Source: a virus
Virus record (IMG/VR): IMGVR_UViG_3300022885_000010
Reading direction: 5' to 3' (one strand)
Length of the DNA stretch: 64,000 bases
Shown here: positions 14,039 through 58,520 of the stretch, in pieces
Position numbering within the stretch: the first letter of the stretch is position 1
Layout: each line of letters starts with the position of its first letter
Notes under the pieces: generated by a model
Told to the model about the DNA's origin: nothing
The model's input: only the letters and a program-made list of their open reading frames with translations
Databases searched by the model: none
Position numbers and translations under genes: made by a program

Positions 14039-14079
14039 AAAATAAAATTAGGATATGTCATTTCTTTTTCGTAAGTTTG
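14039..14079 (+). promoter_or_regulatory. Bacteroidota-type promoter copy 4 (drives ncRNA array)
   Basis: AAAATAAAA-TTAG-N20-TAAGTTTG. Confidence 0.85.
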
Positions 14080-14113: not shown

Positions 14114-14185
14114 TTTGCTATGATATTTCATACTTCTAAACTACTATACCATGAATATAACAAGAAACGAAATATCAATTACAAA
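14114..14185 (+). ncRNA. Y-RNA-like stem-loop unit 1
   Basis: TTTG/CAAA stem, CTA/ATTA internal loop, TGATATTTC/GAAATATCA stem, ATACTTCT loop motif. Confidence 0.75.
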
Positions 14186-14194
14186 TAATACTAT

Positions 14195-14262
14195 GGGTTG
14201 CTATATAGAAACATACTTCTAAAATATACAAAACGCAAACTACGTTTTTATAATTACAACCC
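14195..14262 (+). ncRNA. Y-RNA-like stem-loop unit 2
   Basis: GGGTTG/CAACCC, CTA/ATTA, TATAGAAAC/GTTTTTATA, ATACTTCT. Confidence 0.75.
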
Positions 14263-14283
14263 TTTCTTTTAAAATTAATTTAA

Positions 14284-14345
14284 GTCTGCTATGAAATTTC
14301 ATACTTCTATAATTTTGGATATTAATCGAAATTTCAATTACAGAC
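14284..14345 (+). ncRNA. Y-RNA-like stem-loop unit 3
   Basis: GTCTG/CAGAC, CTA/ATTA, TGAAATTTC/GAAATTTCA, ATACTTCT. Confidence 0.75.
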
Positions 14346-14357
14346 ATTTTTTACTTA

Positions 14358-14490
14358 AATTGCTATATGAAATCATACTTCTAACATTAAGGAACTTCAG
14401 GTCGTAGGTTCGAGTCCTACCTAATCGTAATAATCGGTTAGTAGCTCAGTTGGTAGAGCAGAAGTATAAAACGATTTCATAATCACAATT
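14358..14490 (+). ncRNA. YrlA-like RNA: unit 4 with circularly permuted tRNA module
   Basis: AATTG/CAATT, CTA/ATCA, TATGAAATC/GATTTCATA; inside: T-arm GTAGG-TTCGAGT-CCTAC, then CTAATCG/CGGTTAG acceptor stem closed by a loop, then D-arm GCTC-AGTTGGTA-GAGC. Confidence 0.82.
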
Positions 14491-14518: not shown

Positions 14519-16624
14519 ATGAATAAAGACCTATTAAAAATAGCATTAAAATATAGATCATCTATATTCATAATGGACTCATCTTCTACAGTATTAGAAG
14601 ATATTGATATTAATAATTACAAACAATCAATAAAAGAGACTATAGCATATAACCAAATATTGAATAATTTGGGTTATACGATAGATTCTCATTTACTTAA
14701 ACTTGTATTACGATATAACTTAAATTTAATTGATATAATTTTTATATTGGAAGAATTTAAAGGTGCACGTTCATATAAAACATTTTATCCAAACTTCCCA
14801 GAAGAAGTTTATAATATGTCTGAATTTGAGCTATACTTTAACGCTATAATACATTATTTGTCATTAGGCGAATACTATCCAGATATAGATAAAAAGCCAA
14901 GACAAACTGATATTGACGTATTAAACTTCAAACGTATAGGTATAATAGATATTAATGGTATGATAGAAATATTATGTGATTTATTATCTACTAATGATTC
15001 TCTATCTGATTTCGATAAGGAATCAGTTAAGGTATTAATAGCTCACTTTGGAGAGATATATGATATTAATACTATAAATATTCCATATAAAGAAAACTTA
15101 TGTTATGTAGTTGAATATACTGATAATTTAGAATTACTCAAAACACCAACTGATATACTACGTTACTGTACATATCTATCTGGTGGTGATGTATCATTAA
15201 CTGAAAATACCAAGTTTAAATCATTATCTAAAAGTCTTAGACGTAGAATAACTAATAGACTTGATAAAGTGTTTAACGTAGATGACTTCAAGAGACATAA
15301 AAATAAATGGATTAAATTAACACATTCATTACATTGTGGTGAATTTCTAAAACAATCCAAATTTTCAGATGTATTGAGATCATTTAGAAATAATAAAAAT
15401 GTAGAGAGTTTAAGCACTATTATAAATGAATCTTTAAAAAATAAAGACTATCATTCAGCTATTAATTCTCTAATGAAGAAACCAGGTGAATACGTAAGAA
15501 ACATAGTAACTTTAATTAATATCTCTGATGGATATAACTCTGGTAAATTAGGTATTGATAATTTAGAAGAATGTATATCAGAAGTATCAACACGAGTATT
15601 ATTACAAGCTAAAGGACACTTACAAGTTATATTAAAAGGTTATGATAGTAGATTAGTATTTCCTAAAGGTTCTACATCTAAAGTTAGAAGAGTGCAATTT
15701 AAGAAATTTACAGATTGGCAATTGCAATTAGTACAAGACTATCTAAATTGTATAAACTCACATTTAAGATTGAGATTACAAGGAACGTCAGAAGGTAAGA
15801 AAGTATATATAGATGAAAGATTAAGTCAATATACATTACCTACACAACAAAGAAGTGTATCGGAAGGTCAATTCTCTTATGGTAGAGGATCTAAGATTGA
15901 TTTAGAAGATAAAAATAAAAATATAACTTTACGAATGTTTTGTCATTGGATAGGACAAGATATTGATTTGTCAGCTACATTATATAATGATAAATTTGAA
16001 ATGGTAACTCATTGTTCATTTCAACAATTAAAAATTAAAGAATTAGAAATAGTACATTCTGGTGATATTACACGAGCACCAAATGGAGCATCTGAATTTA
16101 TTGATATAACTATGAATAAAGTAGTAAAATCAGAAGTTAGATATATAACATTAAATATAAATGTTTATAGTGGCCCAACATTTAAAGAACATAAAGAATG
16201 TTTCGCAGGTTTTATGCTAAGAGAACGTCCTAATTCAAATGAGATTTATGATCCTAAAACAGTTAAGTATTCTATGAAATTAGATGGAAATTCTAAGGTA
16301 GCAGTTCCATTTATCTTTGATATTGAAACTAAACAGATAATCTGGACTGATTTATATTTTAGAAATGGTGGTATGCATCATAACACAGTTATCAATAATG
16401 ATGTGAATGTATCTGATGTGTTAAGGTCTATAGTTAATCTAACTGATAAAACTACATTAAAAGACTTATTTAGTATGTACTATGCACCATCACAATTAAC
16501 ATTTGACATTGATAACGCTGATATGCTATATGTTACGGATGAGTATGAGGATGATACGTTAGATAATAAAAATGTTGTTAGAGCAAGTGATGTTCTAACT
16601 ATAAATTCAAAATATATAAAATAA
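14519..16624 (+). CDS. Probable Rot/TROVE-like helical domain fused to C-terminal TerD-like domain
   Basis: FYPNFPEEVYNMSEFELYFNAIIHY; C-terminal DIDLSA..HSGDITRAPNGASEFIDI (TerD-like); Rot assignment inferred from family recall and adjacent Y-like RNAs. Confidence 0.7.
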   Translation: MNKDLLKIALKYRSSIFIMDSSSTVLEDIDINNYKQSIKETIAYNQILNNLGYTIDSHLLKLVLRYNLNLIDIIFILEEFKGARSYKTFYPNFPEEVYNMSEFELYFNAIIHYLSLGEYYPDIDKKPRQTDIDVLNFKRIGIIDINGMIEILCDLLSTNDSLSDFDKESVKVLIAHFGEIYDINTINIPYKENLCYVVEYTDNLELLKTPTDILRYCTYLSGGDVSLTENTKFKSLSKSLRRRITNRLDKVFNVDDFKRHKNKWIKLTHSLHCGEFLKQSKFSDVLRSFRNNKNVESLSTIINESLKNKDYHSAINSLMKKPGEYVRNIVTLINISDGYNSGKLGIDNLEECISEVSTRVLLQAKGHLQVILKGYDSRLVFPKGSTSKVRRVQFKKFTDWQLQLVQDYLNCINSHLRLRLQGTSEGKKVYIDERLSQYTLPTQQRSVSEGQFSYGRGSKIDLEDKNKNITLRMFCHWIGQDIDLSATLYNDKFEMVTHCSFQQLKIKELEIVHSGDITRAPNGASEFIDITMNKVVKSEVRYITLNINVYSGPTFKEHKECFAGFMLRERPNSNEIYDPKTVKYSMKLDGNSKVAVPFIFDIETKQIIWTDLYFRNGGMHHNTVINNDVNVSDVLRSIVNLTDKTTLKDLFSMYYAPSQLTFDIDNADMLYVTDEYEDDTLDNKNVVRASDVLTINSKYIK

Positions 16625-16685
16625 TAATTAATTTACAAAAAACGTATCTCTATTTATTAATAGAAGTAAAATTAAAAAGATAATA

Positions 16686-16772
16686 ATGACTCGTAATAAT
16701 AAACATATGAATAGCTTTAGACCTAATATACACGTTGAGTGTGGGTTTGGGGTGTATGTACGAAGGGCATAA
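16686..16772 (+). CDS. 28-aa putative leader peptide of tRNA cluster 1
   Basis: MTRNNKHMNSFRPNIHVECGFGVYVRRA*, followed by terminator then tRNAs. Confidence 0.5.
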   Translation: MTRNNKHMNSFRPNIHVECGFGVYVRRA

Positions 16773-16800
16773 TAATAAATTCATTTCTAAAAATTTATAA

Positions 16801-16838
16801 AAATCCTTCAACTTAAAACACTGAAGGATTTTTTATTT
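16801..16838 (+). terminator. Intrinsic terminator upstream of tRNA cluster 1
   Basis: AAATCCTTCA/TGAAGGATTT stem plus T-run. Confidence 0.75.
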
Positions 16839-16845
16839 ATAATTC

Positions 16846-16918
16846 GGTCTTATCGTCTAAATGGTTAGGACACAACTCATTCGAAGTTGCAATCAGGATT
16901 CGAGTTCCTGTAAGATCA
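16846..16918 (+). tRNA. tRNA-Glu(TTC), atypical A33
   Basis: GGTCTTA/TAAGATC; CAACT-CATTCGA-AGTTG; CAGGA-TTCGAGT-TCCTG. Confidence 0.75.
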
Positions 16919-16926
16919 CAAGTTAT

Positions 16927-17010
16927 TGCGGAATGGTGTAATGGTTAACATCCTGGGCTCATAACCCAGAGACGAGAAGTATAATGACAGTTCGAATCTG
17001 TCTTCCGCAA
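16927..17010 (+). tRNA. tRNA-Met(CAT), initiator-like, 16-nt variable region
   Basis: TGCGGAA/TTCCGCA; CTGGG-CTCATAA-CCCAG (3 GC pairs); GACAG-TTCGAAT-CTGTC. Confidence 0.85.
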
Positions 17011-17021
17011 CTTTTTATTAT

Positions 17022-17096
17022 GGTGTTTGTAGCTCAGTTGGTTAGAGCGTCGGTCTGTGAAACCGAAGGTCGTGGGATCGTAGCCCATCATTCACC
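17022..17096 (+). tRNA. tRNA-His(GTG)
   Basis: G-1/C73; TCGGT-CTGTGAA-ACCGA; two acceptor mismatches; T-loop ATCGTAG. Confidence 0.8.
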
Positions 17097-17103
17097 CAAA
17101 TAT

Positions 17104-17177
17104 TGATCTGTAGCTTAGTTGGTCAAAGCAGCGAACTCATAATTCGAAGATCGACGGTTCAAGTCCGTCCAGGTCAA
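17104..17177 (+). tRNA. tRNA with CAT anticodon (Ile2 or elongator Met)
   Basis: TGATCTG/CAGGTCA; CGAA-CTCATAA-TTCG; GACGG-TTCAAGT-CCGTC. Confidence 0.85.
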
Positions 17178-17189
17178 CTCGTTAGAAAT

Positions 17190-17263
17190 GTACATTTGGT
17201 GTAATTGGCAACATTATCCTACCTCCAATTGGAGATAAAGGTTCGAATCCTACCTTGGGTACA
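17190..17263 (+). pseudogene. Degenerate tRNA (possibly Trp, CCA)
   Basis: D-arm TGGTGTAATTGGCAACAT and GGTTCGAATCC present; acceptor and anticodon stems poorly paired. Confidence 0.45.
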
Positions 17264-17275
17264 AAATATAATAAT

Positions 17276-17348
17276 GGTGAATTAGTCGAGTGGTTTCAGA
17301 CAACGGATTGCAAACTCGTTTACCCCAGTTCGAATCTGGGATTCACCT
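17276..17348 (+). tRNA. tRNA-Cys(GCA)
   Basis: GGTGAAT/ATTCACC, U73; loop TTGCAAA; CCCAG-TTCGAAT-CTGGG. Confidence 0.88.
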
Positions 17349-17366
17349 CTTTAAACTAAGGTATAT

Positions 17367-17846
17367 ATGTATTTCAAGACATTCCAAACAAACGAAATAA
17401 TTGATGATTGGATTTTACATGTTCAGAAATTCATTGAAATGAATCCTGATGCTAAAATAGCAGTTGGATCGGATTCAAAATATAAGAAGGCATCTAAAAA
17501 AGTTATTTATGTTACCGTGATAGCTATGTTTTATTATGGAACTGATGGATACAATAAAGGTGCTCATTTAATATATTCTATGGATAAACATAAAAAAGAA
17601 TTATCTATATTTGAAATGCTTTGGACTGAAGTAGAGAAATCTAAATGTATAGCCGAAGAAATACAAGATATTTTACAAGAACCTGTAGAAATCCATATCG
17701 ATTTAAATTCAGAAGCTAAATATAAATCTAATATAGCATATCCTGCGGCTGTAGGTTGGCTTAAAAGTTTAGGGTTTGATGTATTTGCAAAACCAAATGC
17801 ACCTGCTGCAACGTGTGCAGCTGATTTAATAGCTAATAGAAAATAA
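17367..17846 (+). CDS. RNase H-like YkuK-family protein
   Basis: AVGSDS, LWTEVEKS, VEIHIDLN, KPNAPAATCAAD. Confidence 0.8.
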   Translation: MYFKTFQTNEIIDDWILHVQKFIEMNPDAKIAVGSDSKYKKASKKVIYVTVIAMFYYGTDGYNKGAHLIYSMDKHKKELSIFEMLWTEVEKSKCIAEEIQDILQEPVEIHIDLNSEAKYKSNIAYPAAVGWLKSLGFDVFAKPNAPAATCAADLIANRK

Positions 17847-17880
17847 AATTTGTTTATATCATTATTTTTTCGTAAGTTTG
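17840..17880 (+). promoter_or_regulatory. Bacteroidota-type promoter copy 5
   Basis: AAAATAAAA-TTTG-N20-TAAGTTTG. Confidence 0.85.
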
Positions 17881-17916
17881 TATTATTATTTTAAACGATA
17901 TTAAAAAAATAACATT

Positions 17917-18387
17917 ATGAATGAGAATTATGAATTTTTCTGGTCAGGGCCATTTAGTCAATGGCATCCTTGTAAATTTGAAATAGATGGTGATATGTAT
18001 AATTGTACAGAACAGTATATGATGCAACAAAAGGCTTTATTCTTTGGTGATGAATTAACTGCTTCAAAGATTATGAATACTTTACATCCAAAACAACAGA
18101 AGAAACTAGGTAGAGAAGTTTCAAATTTCATTGCTGAAAAATGGTCAGTTGTATGTGAAGAAATTGTATATAAAGGAAACCATGCAAAGTTCACACAAAA
18201 CGAAAAATTATTAAATAAATTACTTGATACTAAAGATAAAACTTTAGTTGATGCTTCTCCATGTGATAAGATTTGGGGTATTGGTTTACTTGAAGATGAT
18301 CCAAGAGCACAAGACCCTGAACAGTGGTTAGGTTTAAATTTGTTAGGAAAGGTCTTAACTAAATTAAGAGATGACTTAGTTAAATAG
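17917..18387 (+). CDS. NADAR (YbiA-family) protein
   Basis: FSQWHP, EQYMMQQKA, KKLGR, AKFTQN, DKIWGIG, NLLGKVL. Confidence 0.92.
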   Translation: MNENYEFFWSGPFSQWHPCKFEIDGDMYNCTEQYMMQQKALFFGDELTASKIMNTLHPKQQKKLGREVSNFIAEKWSVVCEEIVYKGNHAKFTQNEKLLNKLLDTKDKTLVDASPCDKIWGIGLLEDDPRAQDPEQWLGLNLLGKVLTKLRDDLVK

Positions 18388-18423
18388 ACATATTAAGAAT
18401 ACATTAAAAAAAAGAGAGTAAAA

Positions 18424-19353
18424 ATGTTCTGGAAGAAGAAGAATGAAAGTAAAACTATAAGTTTAACAACTATATTATATGATTTATGTAGAAATAAAAC
18501 ACATAATAAACTATTTTGGAATGCAATTACAGAATCTATGGAACGTAATAGCTATAACACAGACGGTTTTAGTATAATTGGTAATTATCAAGATTTTGGT
18601 GATATAGATGTAACATATAATAATAATGACGAACGAATTACAATCGAAGTTAAACCACTTAGAAGTCTACACAATAGATACGGTTATGGGTGTTGTTATG
18701 ATGAGTATCATTCTTACAAATTCCCAAAGTGGAAACAACTTGACAAATTACAATCAATTACATTTTCCATTTCTACGATAGAAGATATAGATAAATTCAT
18801 AAGTCAATTTGAAGAATGGTTATCTGTATTAAATGATTTAGTGTCTAAATATGAAGTTTTAAATGATAGATTAACTAAGATAAAAACACATATAAATACT
18901 AAATTGTATAATGAGCATAAACAAATAAGAACTATAAAAATAAAAGATGATTATAACGATGAATATATAAAGTTTATGTCGTATAATGGTAAAACGAAAC
19001 AATTACAAGTAAGCGATTATATAAAACCAGATGCTGACACTACATGTTTATTAATTGATAATATAAGAATCAATTTTCAACAAGTAATTCAATTCTTGCA
19101 ATCTCATTTAGTAGGATTTGAAACTATAGAAATACAAGATGATCATGATGACTATAATTGTGAATCTCATGGTTCAACTACTACTATAGCGTTGACCAGT
19201 GAGAATATGAATATTAGATATGAAATACAAGGTACGAATAAAAATACTACGTTTTATTTTAATGTTATCGGTAGTATATTGATAATAAGCATAGATAATA
19301 TAGAACAAGATGGATGTCATATAGACACTAAATATATAGGGAATGTACAATGA
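18424..19353 (+). CDS. hypothetical protein
   Basis: ORF track, 309 aa. Confidence 0.7.
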   Translation: MFWKKKNESKTISLTTILYDLCRNKTHNKLFWNAITESMERNSYNTDGFSIIGNYQDFGDIDVTYNNNDERITIEVKPLRSLHNRYGYGCCYDEYHSYKFPKWKQLDKLQSITFSISTIEDIDKFISQFEEWLSVLNDLVSKYEVLNDRLTKIKTHINTKLYNEHKQIRTIKIKDDYNDEYIKFMSYNGKTKQLQVSDYIKPDADTTCLLIDNIRINFQQVIQFLQSHLVGFETIEIQDDHDDYNCESHGSTTTIALTSENMNIRYEIQGTNKNTTFYFNVIGSILIISIDNIEQDGCHIDTKYIGNVQ

Positions 19354-19655
19354 CAAATGAATTCGATAAATTTAAAAGGTTCATAACAGAATCTACAGTG
19401 GAAGATGAAATATCTTCATATGGTAATTGGGAAGAAACAGATACTAAGTTTAATTTAGATTCTATGGTCTATGGTGAACAATTGGGATATGAACTTACTT
19501 TTATAGATAATGATGGTACAGAACAAGTAACAAAATCCATCAGAACAGGAACAAGAAGTATTAGACCGATTAAGGTTCAATTCAAAACTGAAAATGGGAT
19601 TTTATTTTATAGGGTATTAGCAACTTTAGATAAAGAAAAGTTTCTCGTAAATTAA
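19350..19655 (+). CDS. hypothetical protein
   Basis: ORF track, ATGA overlap. Confidence 0.65.
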   Translation: MTNEFDKFKRFITESTVEDEISSYGNWEETDTKFNLDSMVYGEQLGYELTFIDNDGTEQVTKSIRTGTRSIRPIKVQFKTENGILFYRVLATLDKEKFLVN

Positions 19656-19658
19656 TTT

Positions 19659-19796
19659 ATATTGATATTGGTGAAAGATAGACACGCCTAACATAAGTAA
19701 AGTAGGAGTCAGTGCTTCTTATTAGATTAAGTTTTATGTGGGTTGACGTGCGTGGGAGAATCGTTTTTGTTGGTATCGAGTCCAACATATCGATAT
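19659..19796 (+). ncRNA. Oversized tRNA-like RNA (Leu-type D-arm, long central insert)
   Basis: 10-bp ATATTGATAT/ATATCGATAT closing stem, TGGTGAAAGATAGACAC D-arm, GTTGG-TATCGAGT-CCAAC T-arm. Confidence 0.55.
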
Positions 19797-19835
19797 AATT
19801 AATTTACGAGAAACTTATCTCTATTTATATATAAG

Positions 19836-19949
19836 ATGAAAAATACAATAATAACATATCAACAACCGAGTATATTACAACCAATCACATTGTGGTCGTT
19901 AGCGACTGCTCTGGATTCGATGGTAGGGGATATTTATGTTATTAATTAG
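19836..19949 (+). CDS. 37-aa putative leader peptide of tRNA cluster 2
   Basis: MKNTIITYQQPSILQPITLWSLATALDSMVGDIYVIN*, followed by terminator then tRNAs. Confidence 0.5.
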   Translation: MKNTIITYQQPSILQPITLWSLATALDSMVGDIYVIN

Positions 19950-19980
19950 ATAAAATAAAATTATATAATGAATATGAAAT

Positions 19981-20020
19981 AAAATCTCCTCTAATAAAAT
20001 AGACGAGATTTTTTCTTTTT
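19981..20020 (+). terminator. Intrinsic terminator upstream of tRNA cluster 2
   Basis: AAAATCTC-C-TCTA/TAGA-C-GAGATTTT stem plus T-run. Confidence 0.7.
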
Positions 20021-20022
20021 AT

Positions 20023-20109
20023 GGAAGTTCAGCAATTGGTGTAGCAAACTGTTTTGAAAACAGCTAAGCCCCTAATAAGGCAATGGGGTTTCGACTGCCC
20101 CAACTTCCT
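20023..20109 (+). tRNA. tRNA-Ser(TGA)
   Basis: GGAAGTT/AACTTCC; loop TTTGAAA; long variable arm. Confidence 0.8.
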
Positions 20110-20116
20110 CTTTAAT

Positions 20117-20201
20117 GCGTCGTACGGGAGTTGGAGATCCCAGCCAGACTGTAAATCTGGTTAGTTCATACTATAGCTAAGTTCGAATCTCTCACCACCT
20201 A
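20117..20201 (+). pseudogene. tRNA-Tyr(GTA) with unpaired acceptor and T stems
   Basis: CCAGA-CTGTAAA-TCTGG arm intact; 5' GCGTCGT does not pair with 3' ACCACCT. Confidence 0.6.
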
Positions 20202-20211
20202 CAACAAAAAT

Positions 20212-20284
20212 GCGAATGTACCCCAACGGAAGAGGGATCGAGTTTAAACCTCGTTCAGTGATGGTTCGAATCCATTCATTCGTA
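20212..20284 (+). tRNA. tRNA-Leu(TAA), short variable loop
   Basis: GCGAATG/CATTCGT; CGAG-TTTAAAC-CTCG; GATGG-TTCGAAT-CCATT. Confidence 0.8.
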
Positions 20285-20292
20285 CAATATAT

Positions 20293-20364
20293 TGGGTGGT
20301 AGCCAAGTGGTAAGGCATCGGTTTTTGAAGCCGACATTCGGTGGTTCGACCCCACCCCACTCAA
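20293..20364 (+). tRNA. tRNA-Gln(TTG)
   Basis: TGGGTGG/CCACTCA; TCGGT-TTTTGAA-GCCGA. Confidence 0.85.
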
Positions 20365-20369
20365 CATTA

Positions 20370-20426
20370 GTATGATATGTCATTCATATAACATATAATC
20401 CATATAATATGAATGATATATCATAC
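20370..20426. repeat. 20-bp inverted repeat between tRNAs
   Basis: GTATGATATGTCATTCATAT ... ATATGAATGATATATCATAC (one G-T pair). Confidence 0.75.
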
Positions 20427-20432
20427 AATAAT

Positions 20433-20506
20433 GGGCCATTAGCTTAATTGGGAAAGCACCATACTTGCAATATGGGGGTTATCGGTTCAAATCCGATATG
20501 TGTCCA
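20433..20506 (+). tRNA. tRNA-Ala(TGC)
   Basis: CCATA-CTTGCAA-TATGG; ATCGG-TTCAAAT-CCGAT; bulged acceptor stem. Confidence 0.78.
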
Positions 20507-20513
20507 CAAATCT

Positions 20514-20600
20514 ACCGGTATAGACAAATGGTAAAGTCACGCGATTTAGACTCGTGGGTAAACGAAGATACACTTGGAAGTTCAAATCTTCCTACCGGTA
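20514..20600 (+). tRNA. tRNA-Leu(TAG)
   Basis: ACCGGTA/TACCGGT; CGCGA-TTTAGAC-TCGTG; long variable arm. Confidence 0.85.
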
Positions 20601-20612
20601 CACTAAAAAAAT

Positions 20613-20697
20613 GGAAATACGGCAATTGGTGTAGCAAACTCTTTGCTAAAGAGTCAATCGTGAAAACGAGATGAAGGTTCGATTCCTTTTATTTCCG
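20613..20697 (+). tRNA. tRNA-Ser(GCT)
   Basis: GGAAATA/TATTTCC, G73; ACTCT-TTGCTAA-AGAGT. Confidence 0.88.
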
Positions 20698-20702
20698 CAT
20701 TT

Positions 20703-47330: not shown

Positions 47331-48419
47331 ATGAAATTTGACAAAAAAGAAATACGTCGGTTAGTAGATGAAAAGTATATTACCGAGAACAGACACCCAA
47401 ACTACAATATTTATGTATATAAATATACATCTAAGACTGTATATGAACGTTATTGGAACGATTATACATTAAACCTACGTGGAACTGTATTAGACAGATT
47501 CTCTAATTTAATATCTATACCATTCTCTAAATTCTTTAATTATAGCGAATACCCATCTCTTGAATTTTCTGATGACACTACCTATATCTATGAGAAGATG
47601 GATGGTGCATTACTAAACTTATTTAATTATGAGGGTAAATGGAATTTTGCAACTCAACAAAGGTTCGTTTCTGAACATACAGAACGAGCAATGAAAATAT
47701 TTGAAGGTAAGTATATAAAGCTAATGCCTATATTAGATCCAACAAAAACATATATGTTTGAGTTAATATCTGATGTATCACATGTAATTGTTAATTATGA
47801 AGAAGAAGATTTACATTTATTAGGTGTTAGGAATAACGTTACTTGTGAATATGATAATTTTGAATATTTCAATTTAAGAAATATGTTCTCATCTGCCAAA
47901 ATATTATTTAAAACTAAAAAACCAGAAGAAGTAAATAATTTTATAGCTAATATAGACACCATATTAGATGAAAATTCTGAAGGTGTTGTTATATACCAAC
48001 CTACTAATGACATACGTGTAAAGGTTAAAACTCAACGTTATATAGAACTGCATAAATTACTATATGTTAATAATGAACGTGCTATGTTTAATTCGTTAAT
48101 ACAAAATAAGAATATAGTCGATGAAACTATATTAAAAGATATACCTGATGAATGGTATAACAATATTAAGACTATGCAAAATAGAATTAAATCTGAAATG
48201 GATAGAATTATAAGTGAAGTGTCAATCTATGTTACTGATAATAGAGATGTAATCCGTTATATGTTAGAGAAGAATAAAGAAAATAGAAAGTTAATGGCTA
48301 TATCAATCAAAGATTATAAATATAAGCATGTGGTATTCTCTCTATTAGACGATAAGAAAGATGATGAATTGTTATTTGATATTATCAAATCTGAAAAGAA
48401 GTGTTTTAATGAAAATTAA
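47331..48419 (+). CDS. T4 Rnl1-type RNA ligase
   Basis: YKYT, RG.V.D, PFSKFFNY.E, EKMDG (motif I), FELI, EGVV, RVKVK. Confidence 0.9.
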   Translation: MKFDKKEIRRLVDEKYITENRHPNYNIYVYKYTSKTVYERYWNDYTLNLRGTVLDRFSNLISIPFSKFFNYSEYPSLEFSDDTTYIYEKMDGALLNLFNYEGKWNFATQQRFVSEHTERAMKIFEGKYIKLMPILDPTKTYMFELISDVSHVIVNYEEEDLHLLGVRNNVTCEYDNFEYFNLRNMFSSAKILFKTKKPEEVNNFIANIDTILDENSEGVVIYQPTNDIRVKVKTQRYIELHKLLYVNNERAMFNSLIQNKNIVDETILKDIPDEWYNNIKTMQNRIKSEMDRIISEVSIYVTDNRDVIRYMLEKNKENRKLMAISIKDYKYKHVVFSLLDDKKDDELLFDIIKSEKKCFNEN

Positions 48420-57659: not shown

Positions 57660-58520
57660 ATGAAAATTAAAATATTACAAGGTGTCCCAGCATCAGGCAA
57701 GACAACCTACGCATTGGATTACTGCAATAAAAATACAGATTGGTTTCGAGTATCACGTGATGATATTAGAAATATGAGAGGTAAGTATTGGCTTCCTAAA
57801 GATGAGCAAATCATAACAGACATTGAAAAATCATGTATTAAATTTGCATTAGAACACAATAAAAACGTTATAGTTGATGCTATGAACCTAAATCCAAATC
57901 ATCTTAGAACATTAAAAGATTATATCAAATCTATAGATCCAAATACACAAATCACAATTAAGAAGTTTCATGTGGATATTGTAGTTGCTATTGATAGAGA
58001 TTCTAAACGTAGTAATCCAGTAGGAGAAAAGGTTATTAGAGAAATATATAATAAGTATTTCAAAATAGAACCTAAAGTCTTAAAACAAGATATATCATTA
58101 CCATCAGCTATTATATGTGATATTGATGGTACTATTGCTGATAGAGTAGATAGAAGTCCATTTGAATGGGATAGAGTAGATGAGGATATTGCTATACAAC
58201 CAATTATAGATATAATTTGTAAGTATAATGAATTAGGAACTGAAATTATATTTTTGTCTGGTAGAGATGGCGTGTGTTATGATAAAACTTTAAAGTGGAT
58301 AAATAATAACGTTGGATTTACAACGTTAGATACTAAGTTGTATATGAGAGATGAGGGTGATATGCGTAAAGATAATATAATCAAAACAGAATTATTCGAT
58401 AAGCATATCAGAGATAAATACAATGTATTGTTTGTATTGGATGATAGAGATCAAGTTGTTAAGATGTGGAGAGAAGAGATGGGTCTAACTTGTTTACAAG
58501 TAAATTATGGAGACTTCTGA
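57660..58520 (+). CDS. pseT: Polynucleotide 5'-kinase/3'-phosphatase (T4 PNKP-like)
   Basis: GVPASGKTT, SRDDIR; HAD ICDIDGT, LSGRD, DDRDQVV.MWR. Confidence 0.93.
   Translation: MKIKILQGVPASGKTTYALDYCNKNTDWFRVSRDDIRNMRGKYWLPKDEQIITDIEKSCIKFALEHNKNVIVDAMNLNPNHLRTLKDYIKSIDPNTQITIKKFHVDIVVAIDRDSKRSNPVGEKVIREIYNKYFKIEPKVLKQDISLPSAIICDIDGTIADRVDRSPFEWDRVDEDIAIQPIIDIICKYNELGTEIIFLSGRDGVCYDKTLKWINNNVGFTTLDTKLYMRDEGDMRKDNIIKTELFDKHIRDKYNVLFVLDDRDQVVKMWREEMGLTCLQVNYGDF

Follow-up and report, generated by a model that had tools for sequence, protein, structure and literature searches.

The stretch of DNA analysed here, hereafter the window, is a 64,000-nucleotide (nt) part of a large phage of the Bacteroidota type (IMG/VR record IMGVR_UViG_3300022885_000010; G+C 27%). 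It carries two clusters of transfer RNA (tRNA) genes, and each of these is probably governed by a ribosome-mediated transcription attenuator with a codon-matched leader. This proposal is drawn from the layout of the two units, the codon content of their short open reading frames (ORFs), the alternative helices predicted by folding, and the recurrence of the design in other phage lineages.

The two units have the same architecture (Table 1). In both, a short ORF is located between a candidate promoter and the genes to be controlled, and a predicted intrinsic terminator is located between the ORF and those genes, as in known attenuators. A first-pass annotation of this DNA had described ORFs of 28 and 37 codons, each followed by a hairpin with a T-run and by a first tRNA within about 10 nt, and all of these features were confirmed. 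On folding, hairpin 1 spans residues 16799–16833 (−11.3 kcal/mol, with an 11-nt loop and a U-run to 16838), and hairpin 2 spans residues 19981–20013 (−9.8 kcal/mol, with one 1 × 1 mismatch and a U-run to 20020). A simple terminator scan called neither of them on the + strand, and hairpin 1 on the − strand only. The predicted terminator begins approximately 27–31 nt past the ORF stop in both units; for each unit, about 2% of the shuffled sequences contain an ORF of at least 25 codons that ends 20–36 nt before the terminator arm. The distance from the U-run to the first tRNA is 8 nt in unit 1 (Glu) and 2 nt in unit 2 (Ser(UGA)). Since this gap is too short for a promoter, the tRNAs of each cluster would be made only by read-through of the hairpin.

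The codons of the leaders, which the first-pass annotation had not considered, are related to the tRNAs downstream. In leader 2, 14 of the 36 codons are read by tRNAs of cluster 2, and these cover all seven of its species (Ser-UGA, Tyr, Leu-UAA, Gln, Ala, Leu-UAG and Ser-GCU), a match that is significant both against phage gene windows (P = 0.007) and against base shuffles (P = 0.02). The other two frames of this leader do worse, and swapped leader-cluster pairings are not enriched. Twelve of the 14 matched codons lie before the switch point defined below, in codons 8–26. Leader 1 holds codons for Met, His, Ile2, Glu and Cys, mostly in one run: codons 7–8 are His and Met, and codons 15–20 are Ile(AUA), His, Val, Glu, Cys and Gly, so that a stretch of five codons contains Ile, His, Glu and Cys, with Gly next. 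Counting AUA as matched presupposes that the CAU tRNA at 17104 is Ile2. Such a run was found in 0 windows of phage genes, the windows being overlapping and the test chosen afterwards. Within the fold-defined sensing zones, 12 of 26 codons are matched in unit 2 (P = 0.013) and, if the tRNA remnant of cluster 1 is Gly, 8 of 22 in unit 1 (P = 0.035), with 0 of 5 past the switch; these zone and clustering tests were chosen after the data had been seen. Control codons related to the downstream genes are found upstream of the switch in both units, for all seven species in unit 2 and as a cluster in unit 1. Glu, His and Cys are exclusive to leader 1, and Leu and Gln to leader 2 (Fisher P = 0.02 without Ile, 0.23 with Ile).

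I next consider the predicted switch, for which the nascent RNA was folded as far as the loop of the terminator, all sequence 5′ of the ribosome front being masked. In both units, a strand within the leader ORF is predicted to capture the 5′ arm of the terminator, and this predicted antiterminator, which excludes the terminator, lies where the ribosome can reach it. In unit 1, capture of the arm is 0.5–0.6 with the ribosome up to codon 22 and 0.01 thereafter, placing the switch at codons 23–24. In unit 2, it is 0.8–0.94 up to codon 25, then mostly low, and 0.01 at the stop, placing the switch at codons 26–28. With no ribosome on the leader, capture of the arm persists (0.59 in unit 1 and 0.69 in unit 2), and termination would therefore require a ribosome near the stop. 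For unit 2 the switch is significant, with its amplitude reached by 2 and its helix by 3 of 400 shuffled ORFs. The first-pass annotation had proposed attenuation of the tRNA clusters, and this is well supported in silico by the need for read-through, the switchable antiterminators, the codon match and the recurrence in three other lineages, but it had named the wrong segment in leader 1: GGGTTTGGGG pairs within the leader, and is rejected as the antiterminator, while GAAGGG is predicted to pair with the terminator arm. An anti-antiterminator helix of the trp type (1:2), which is not obligatory for attenuators, was not found by folding in either unit. Searches against Rfam returned no match to a T-box, with its stem I, specifier loop and antiterminator bulge, at E ≤ 1 (at E ≤ 10 for unit 2), and no riboswitch or other family at the units.

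Using homologs of a neighbouring 701-amino acid (aa) gene as bait, I identified six further units in three other lineages (three in L057, two in L064/066/068/069 and one in L111). Although unrelated in sequence, these are built in the same way, with 25–35 nt between the ORF stop and the terminator arm, a predicted G-rich antiterminator in or near the 3′ end of the ORF, and matched codons that end at the switch. Examples include eight Gln codons before three tRNA-Gln genes, the peptide FYYFKK before tRNAs for Tyr, Phe and Lys, and, ahead of a nearly complete tRNA set, a leader of 41 codons in which all 20 amino acids occur. In L066, two clusters split the amino acids between them, and their leaders are split likewise. 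The true pairing of leaders and clusters ranks 1 of 120 without the window units and 1 of 5040 with them, a rank that is inflated, as the comparison units were picked by eye from pipeline output. Among L066, L068 and L069 the sole indel in the ORF is of 3 nt, which keeps the frame, and several changes are synonymous. The design is nonetheless patchy, and not a general property of tRNA arrays: no further convincing leader-terminator unit was found at 160 loci from metagenomes and genomes, at most of the 48 loci with at least three tRNAs in a first, redundant set, or at the tRNA clusters of G006 and G008. Separately, a leader-terminator unit of L057 (7313–7540) has a first tRNA with the anticodon UUA, resembling an ochre suppressor.

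The mechanism I propose would operate as follows. A leader RNA with the short ORF would be made from a late-type promoter, or by transcription continuing out of the upstream operon. A fast-decoding ribosome would reach the last 5–10 codons and cover the G-rich strand, allowing the terminator to fold, and transcription would end 2–8 nt short of the first tRNA. If the ribosome lags within the first ∼22–26 codons, or if there is none, the G-rich strand would capture the 5′ arm of the terminator, and the cluster would be transcribed. Failed initiation would also open the cluster, and an initiator-like tRNA sits in cluster 1. As the ORF is a checklist of the codons read by the downstream tRNAs, the result would be negative feedback on tRNA supply. 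Any slow decoding would suffice, whether from amino-acid starvation, inefficient wobble decoding at the G-ending codons, which are enriched, or failed initiation; induction specifically by host defence that depletes tRNAs, as the first-pass annotation had inferred, is not needed.

A number of observations weigh against this mechanism, in addition to the inflated permutation rank and the partly post hoc tests noted above. By count, leader 1 is not enriched in matched codons (6 of 27, P about 0.35), and its antiterminator is within chance, with the switch reached by 51 and the helix by 66 of 400 shuffled ORFs. About 60% of the codons of leader 2, and a larger share of those of leader 1, have no tRNA in the window (Arg, Val, Phe, Asn and Lys; Thr, Pro, Trp and Asp). 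Folding of the full RNA at equilibrium favours the terminator at every ribosome position; since the terminator is the more stable fold, control must be kinetic and co-transcriptional, and the coupling of transcription and translation in this host is an assumption. Both hairpins are weaker than the terminators of the other phages (−14 to −20 kcal/mol), possibly as a result of decay. Finally, the first-pass annotation had suggested looking for conservation of the leaders in relatives: no diverged homologs of the two leaders were found, and L006–L011 are identical over both units. The geometry is shared by the non-homologous units of three lineages. With its weak terminators, degenerate tRNAs and codons without tRNA, the attenuation system of the window phage looks partly decayed, making it a moderately good example of the design.

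The many unmatched codons raise the question of whether the units, while being real attenuators, are general sensors of translation speed, which would respond whenever translation slows or stops, be it through antibiotics, cold, toxins or failed initiation, with codon identity secondary and the leaders sampling the 20 amino acids. The formation of the antiterminator by default without a ribosome is in line with this, as is the enrichment of rare G-ending codons in the leaders (12 of 32, compared to 15.5%; P = 0.002), and each of the 20 amino acids is represented in the two sensing zones combined (P about 0.015). This last observation is however also what partial loss from a once complete, two-cluster tRNA set would leave. 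In addition, the codons sort by cluster, both here and in the other lineages, and leaders for a single amino acid, such as the eight Gln codons before tRNA-Gln, require codon-specific sensing. I therefore regard such a general sensor as unlikely.

The signs of decay could also indicate that the units no longer switch, with the hairpins acting as leaky terminators, or as processing or stability signals, that fix the tRNA level, and the leaders remaining as relics. The terminators weaker than in other lineages, the degenerate Tyr tRNA and 17189 remnant, and the weak antiterminator of unit 1 are all compatible with this. Nevertheless, both ORFs are intact, with a spacing that matches the other lineages, and unit 2 keeps a strong predicted switch and all seven codon classes, which makes this reading quite unlikely.

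Table 1: Features of the two tRNA units and associated elements in the window.
Feature	Position	Strand	Basis or remark
Shared 34-bp upstream block, copy 1	16624..16657	+	TATTTAT core 16651-16657; putative promoter
Leader ORF 1, 28 codons	16686..16772	+	putatively translated
Predicted antiterminator strand 1 (GAAGGG)	16762..16767	+	pairs with 16804-16809; −7.7 kcal/mol
Intrinsic-terminator-like hairpin 1 and U-run	16799..16838	+	folding
tRNA cluster 1	16846..17349	+	tRNA prediction
Degenerate tRNA remnant	17189..17264	+	anticodon register; Gly(UCC) or Trp(CCA)
20-bp perfect inverted repeat	19638-19657 / 19797-19816	+	closes hairpin round tRNA-like element 19659-19796
Shared 34-bp upstream block, copy 2	19795..19828	+	TATTTAT core 19822-19828, 7 nt before leader 2 ATG
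Leader ORF 2, 37 codons	19836..19949	+	putatively translated
Predicted antiterminator strand 2	19920..19938	+	pairs with about 19978-19993; −11.8 kcal/mol
Intrinsic-terminator-like hairpin 2 and U-run	19981..20020	+	folding
tRNA cluster 2	20023..20698	+	tRNA prediction
RNA repair pair, Rnl1-type ligase and PNKP	47331-48419 and 57660-58520		match PHROG 562, Pfam HAD_PNKP

Upstream of both leaders, the first-pass annotation had identified an identical 13-mer, TATCTCTATTTAT, at 16645 and 19816. The window contains exactly these two copies (0.06 expected; 1 of 100 shuffles reaches two), and they form the 3′ part of a longer common block, with 35 of 43 columns identical from 16624 and 19795. The block ends at its 3′ side in TATTTAT. 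I analysed this heptamer in G010, a viral contig of 68 kb that comes from the same sample and carries head, portal, terminase and sheath genes, and which is probably another part of the window phage's genome, as the two have in common a host promoter and a family of 63-bp repeat genes. Of its 45 copies on the G010 coding strand, 23 are in non-coding DNA (6.6% of the sequence), compared to 9 of 53 for the reverse complement, and copies stand before sheath, tail, PhoH and other genes. TATTTAT is also found upstream of three other window genes. It is probably the core of a late-type phage promoter, a role not recognised in the first-pass annotation, from which the leaders would be transcribed. 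In the other phages, this position is occupied either by TTGACA...TATATT in duplicate or by a −7 element of the Bacteroidota kind, which is consistent with this role. Leader 2 may then be leaderless, and both leaders could also be reached from host promoters upstream, at 14068 and 17869. Two other readings of the block were considered: a Bacteroidota host promoter is rejected, as the window's copies of that promoter (∼20, on the + strand only) are located elsewhere, and a sigma-70-like TTTAC-17-TATnnA is possible, but the late-type core is a better fit.

Within the ∼170 kb examined (the window, G010 and G011), the 5′ half of the block does not recur on the same strand outside these two copies, suggesting that the two units probably have a common origin by duplication, or that this half is a dedicated site. 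Exact scans for a 26-bp motif in viral and metagenome contigs returned nothing. The 5′ half of copy 2 is also the right arm of the 20-bp inverted repeat, whose left arm is the end of the ORF 19350–19655. The hairpin closed by this repeat (∼190 nt, −56.7 kcal/mol) could be a processing stem, or the repeat a reversed promoter copy. It is very unlikely that a phage factor recognises the block, as DNA or RNA, and permits read-through of terminators that end the upstream operons and the leader, with the ORFs incidental or encoding small proteins: the scarcity of the 5′ half, which other late-type promoters lack, and the possible sequestration of copy 2 in the 20-bp stem would suit this, but the codon match and the position of the antiterminators are left unexplained, the block is absent from the other lineages, which have ordinary promoters there, no T-box or riboswitch was matched in Rfam, and the two leader peptides have no sequence in common.

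Cluster 1 contains, in order, tRNA-Glu(UUC) at 16846, tRNA-Met(CAU) at 16927, with three G-C anticodon-stem pairs as in an initiator, tRNA-His(GUG) at 17023, the CAU tRNA at 17104 (Ile2 or Met), the remnant at 17189–17264 and tRNA-Cys(GCA) at 17276. The remnant is called neither by Rfam nor by ARAGORN, but its sequence favours Gly(UCC), with 4 of 5 stem pairs in that register, over Trp(CCA), with 2 of 5. Cluster 2 contains tRNA-Ser(UGA) at 20023, called by ARAGORN only at a relaxed threshold, a degenerate tRNA-Tyr(GUA) at 20117, and tRNAs Leu(UAA) at 20212, Gln(UUG) at 20293, Ala(UGC) at 20433, Leu(UAG) at 20514 and Ser(GCU) at 20613. An AT-rich long hairpin lies between tRNA-Gln and tRNA-Ala (20366–20432), where a tRNA might have been. 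In G010, a lone tRNA-Met(CAU) (L290, 127–201) stands directly behind a gene, with neither leader nor terminator.

The window DNA is present in several metagenome assemblies. Single-protein scans yielded no close relatives of this phage, and INPHARED gave distant matches only. The family of 63-bp (21-aa) repeat genes is large, with dozens of small genes between 10700 and 62400, and its neighbours are rearranged among L006–L010, which suggests recombination between copies. Upstream of the 701-aa gene, whose homologs often adjoin tRNA arrays, are four repeats containing TGCTA...CATACTTCTA (14114–14463), the last of which includes a tRNA-like domain that is circularly permuted and resembles YrlA (E = 1e-5 in Rfam, which falls below the gathering threshold). 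In L002 (8000–9922), repeated RNA-like elements and a terminator precede a TROVE gene, and this region adjoins an RNaseH-like homolog and a 2′-5′ RNA ligase-like gene.

Leader-peptide attenuators are well known from the amino-acid operons of E. coli, such as trpL, hisL and pheL, and the multivalent thrL and ilvGMEDA leaders. The phage units resemble these in having a short ORF with control codons and an exclusive antiterminator and terminator, with the ribosome position sensing charged tRNA. They differ in that they would control tRNAs, and those of a phage; in that the codons form a mixed checklist, mostly with one to three of each, rather than runs; and, compared to trp, in that the untranslated state would be ON, with no super-attenuation by a 1:2 helix. 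T-box riboswitches also report tRNA charging through a terminator/antiterminator switch, a similar logic, but they bind the tRNA directly and need no translation.

In mycobacteria, leaderless polycysteine short ORFs act as attenuators (bioRxiv 10.1101/834739; PMC13096801). Leader 2, if leaderless, would be similar, but the mycobacterial ORFs sense a single amino acid and control protein-coding cysteine genes on a bacterial chromosome. When VapC4 cleaves tRNA-Cys, ribosomes stall at Cys codons, those of the attenuator ORFs included, indicating that tRNA loss can be sensed through such leaders (PMC13096801). Since the window also encodes an Rnl1-type RNA ligase and a PNKP, host attack on tRNA is, by analogy, a reasonable trigger. 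RNA-repair genes likewise co-occur with the trn operon of Anabaena PCC 7120, which is not a phage system, where a tRNA array is silent until translation is impaired (PMC8421152; TrcR, PMC10272220). Control there is exerted by a repressor that binds direct repeats in the promoter, over the −10 box and start site, and is not codon-specific (PMC8421152, PMC10272220); the word ‘attenuation’ does not appear in PMC8421152. No tandem 9-nt repeats of the kind compared are visible by eye in the 34 bp of the block, no search for a repressor having been made. Literature searches, of incomplete coverage and with most subscription papers outside it, found no description of attenuation of tRNA genes. What would be new here is the application of attenuator control to tRNA genes; multivalent attenuators are known, and the units share their structural features, apart from the trp 1:2 helix.

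Why phages carry tRNA genes is an old question, with codon bias, replacement of degraded host tRNA and escape from anticodon nucleases among the answers. It is moderately likely that large phages of several lineages use codon-matched leader attenuators on their tRNA genes as an inducible answer to tRNA loss, including that caused by host anticodon nucleases. If so, attenuation would extend from amino-acid supply to tRNA supply, and the sequence of a leader would record the tRNAs that its cluster holds or once held. Such a leader would also be a ready-made sensor: fused to a reporter, it would reveal the identity and timing of tRNA shortages in infected cells.

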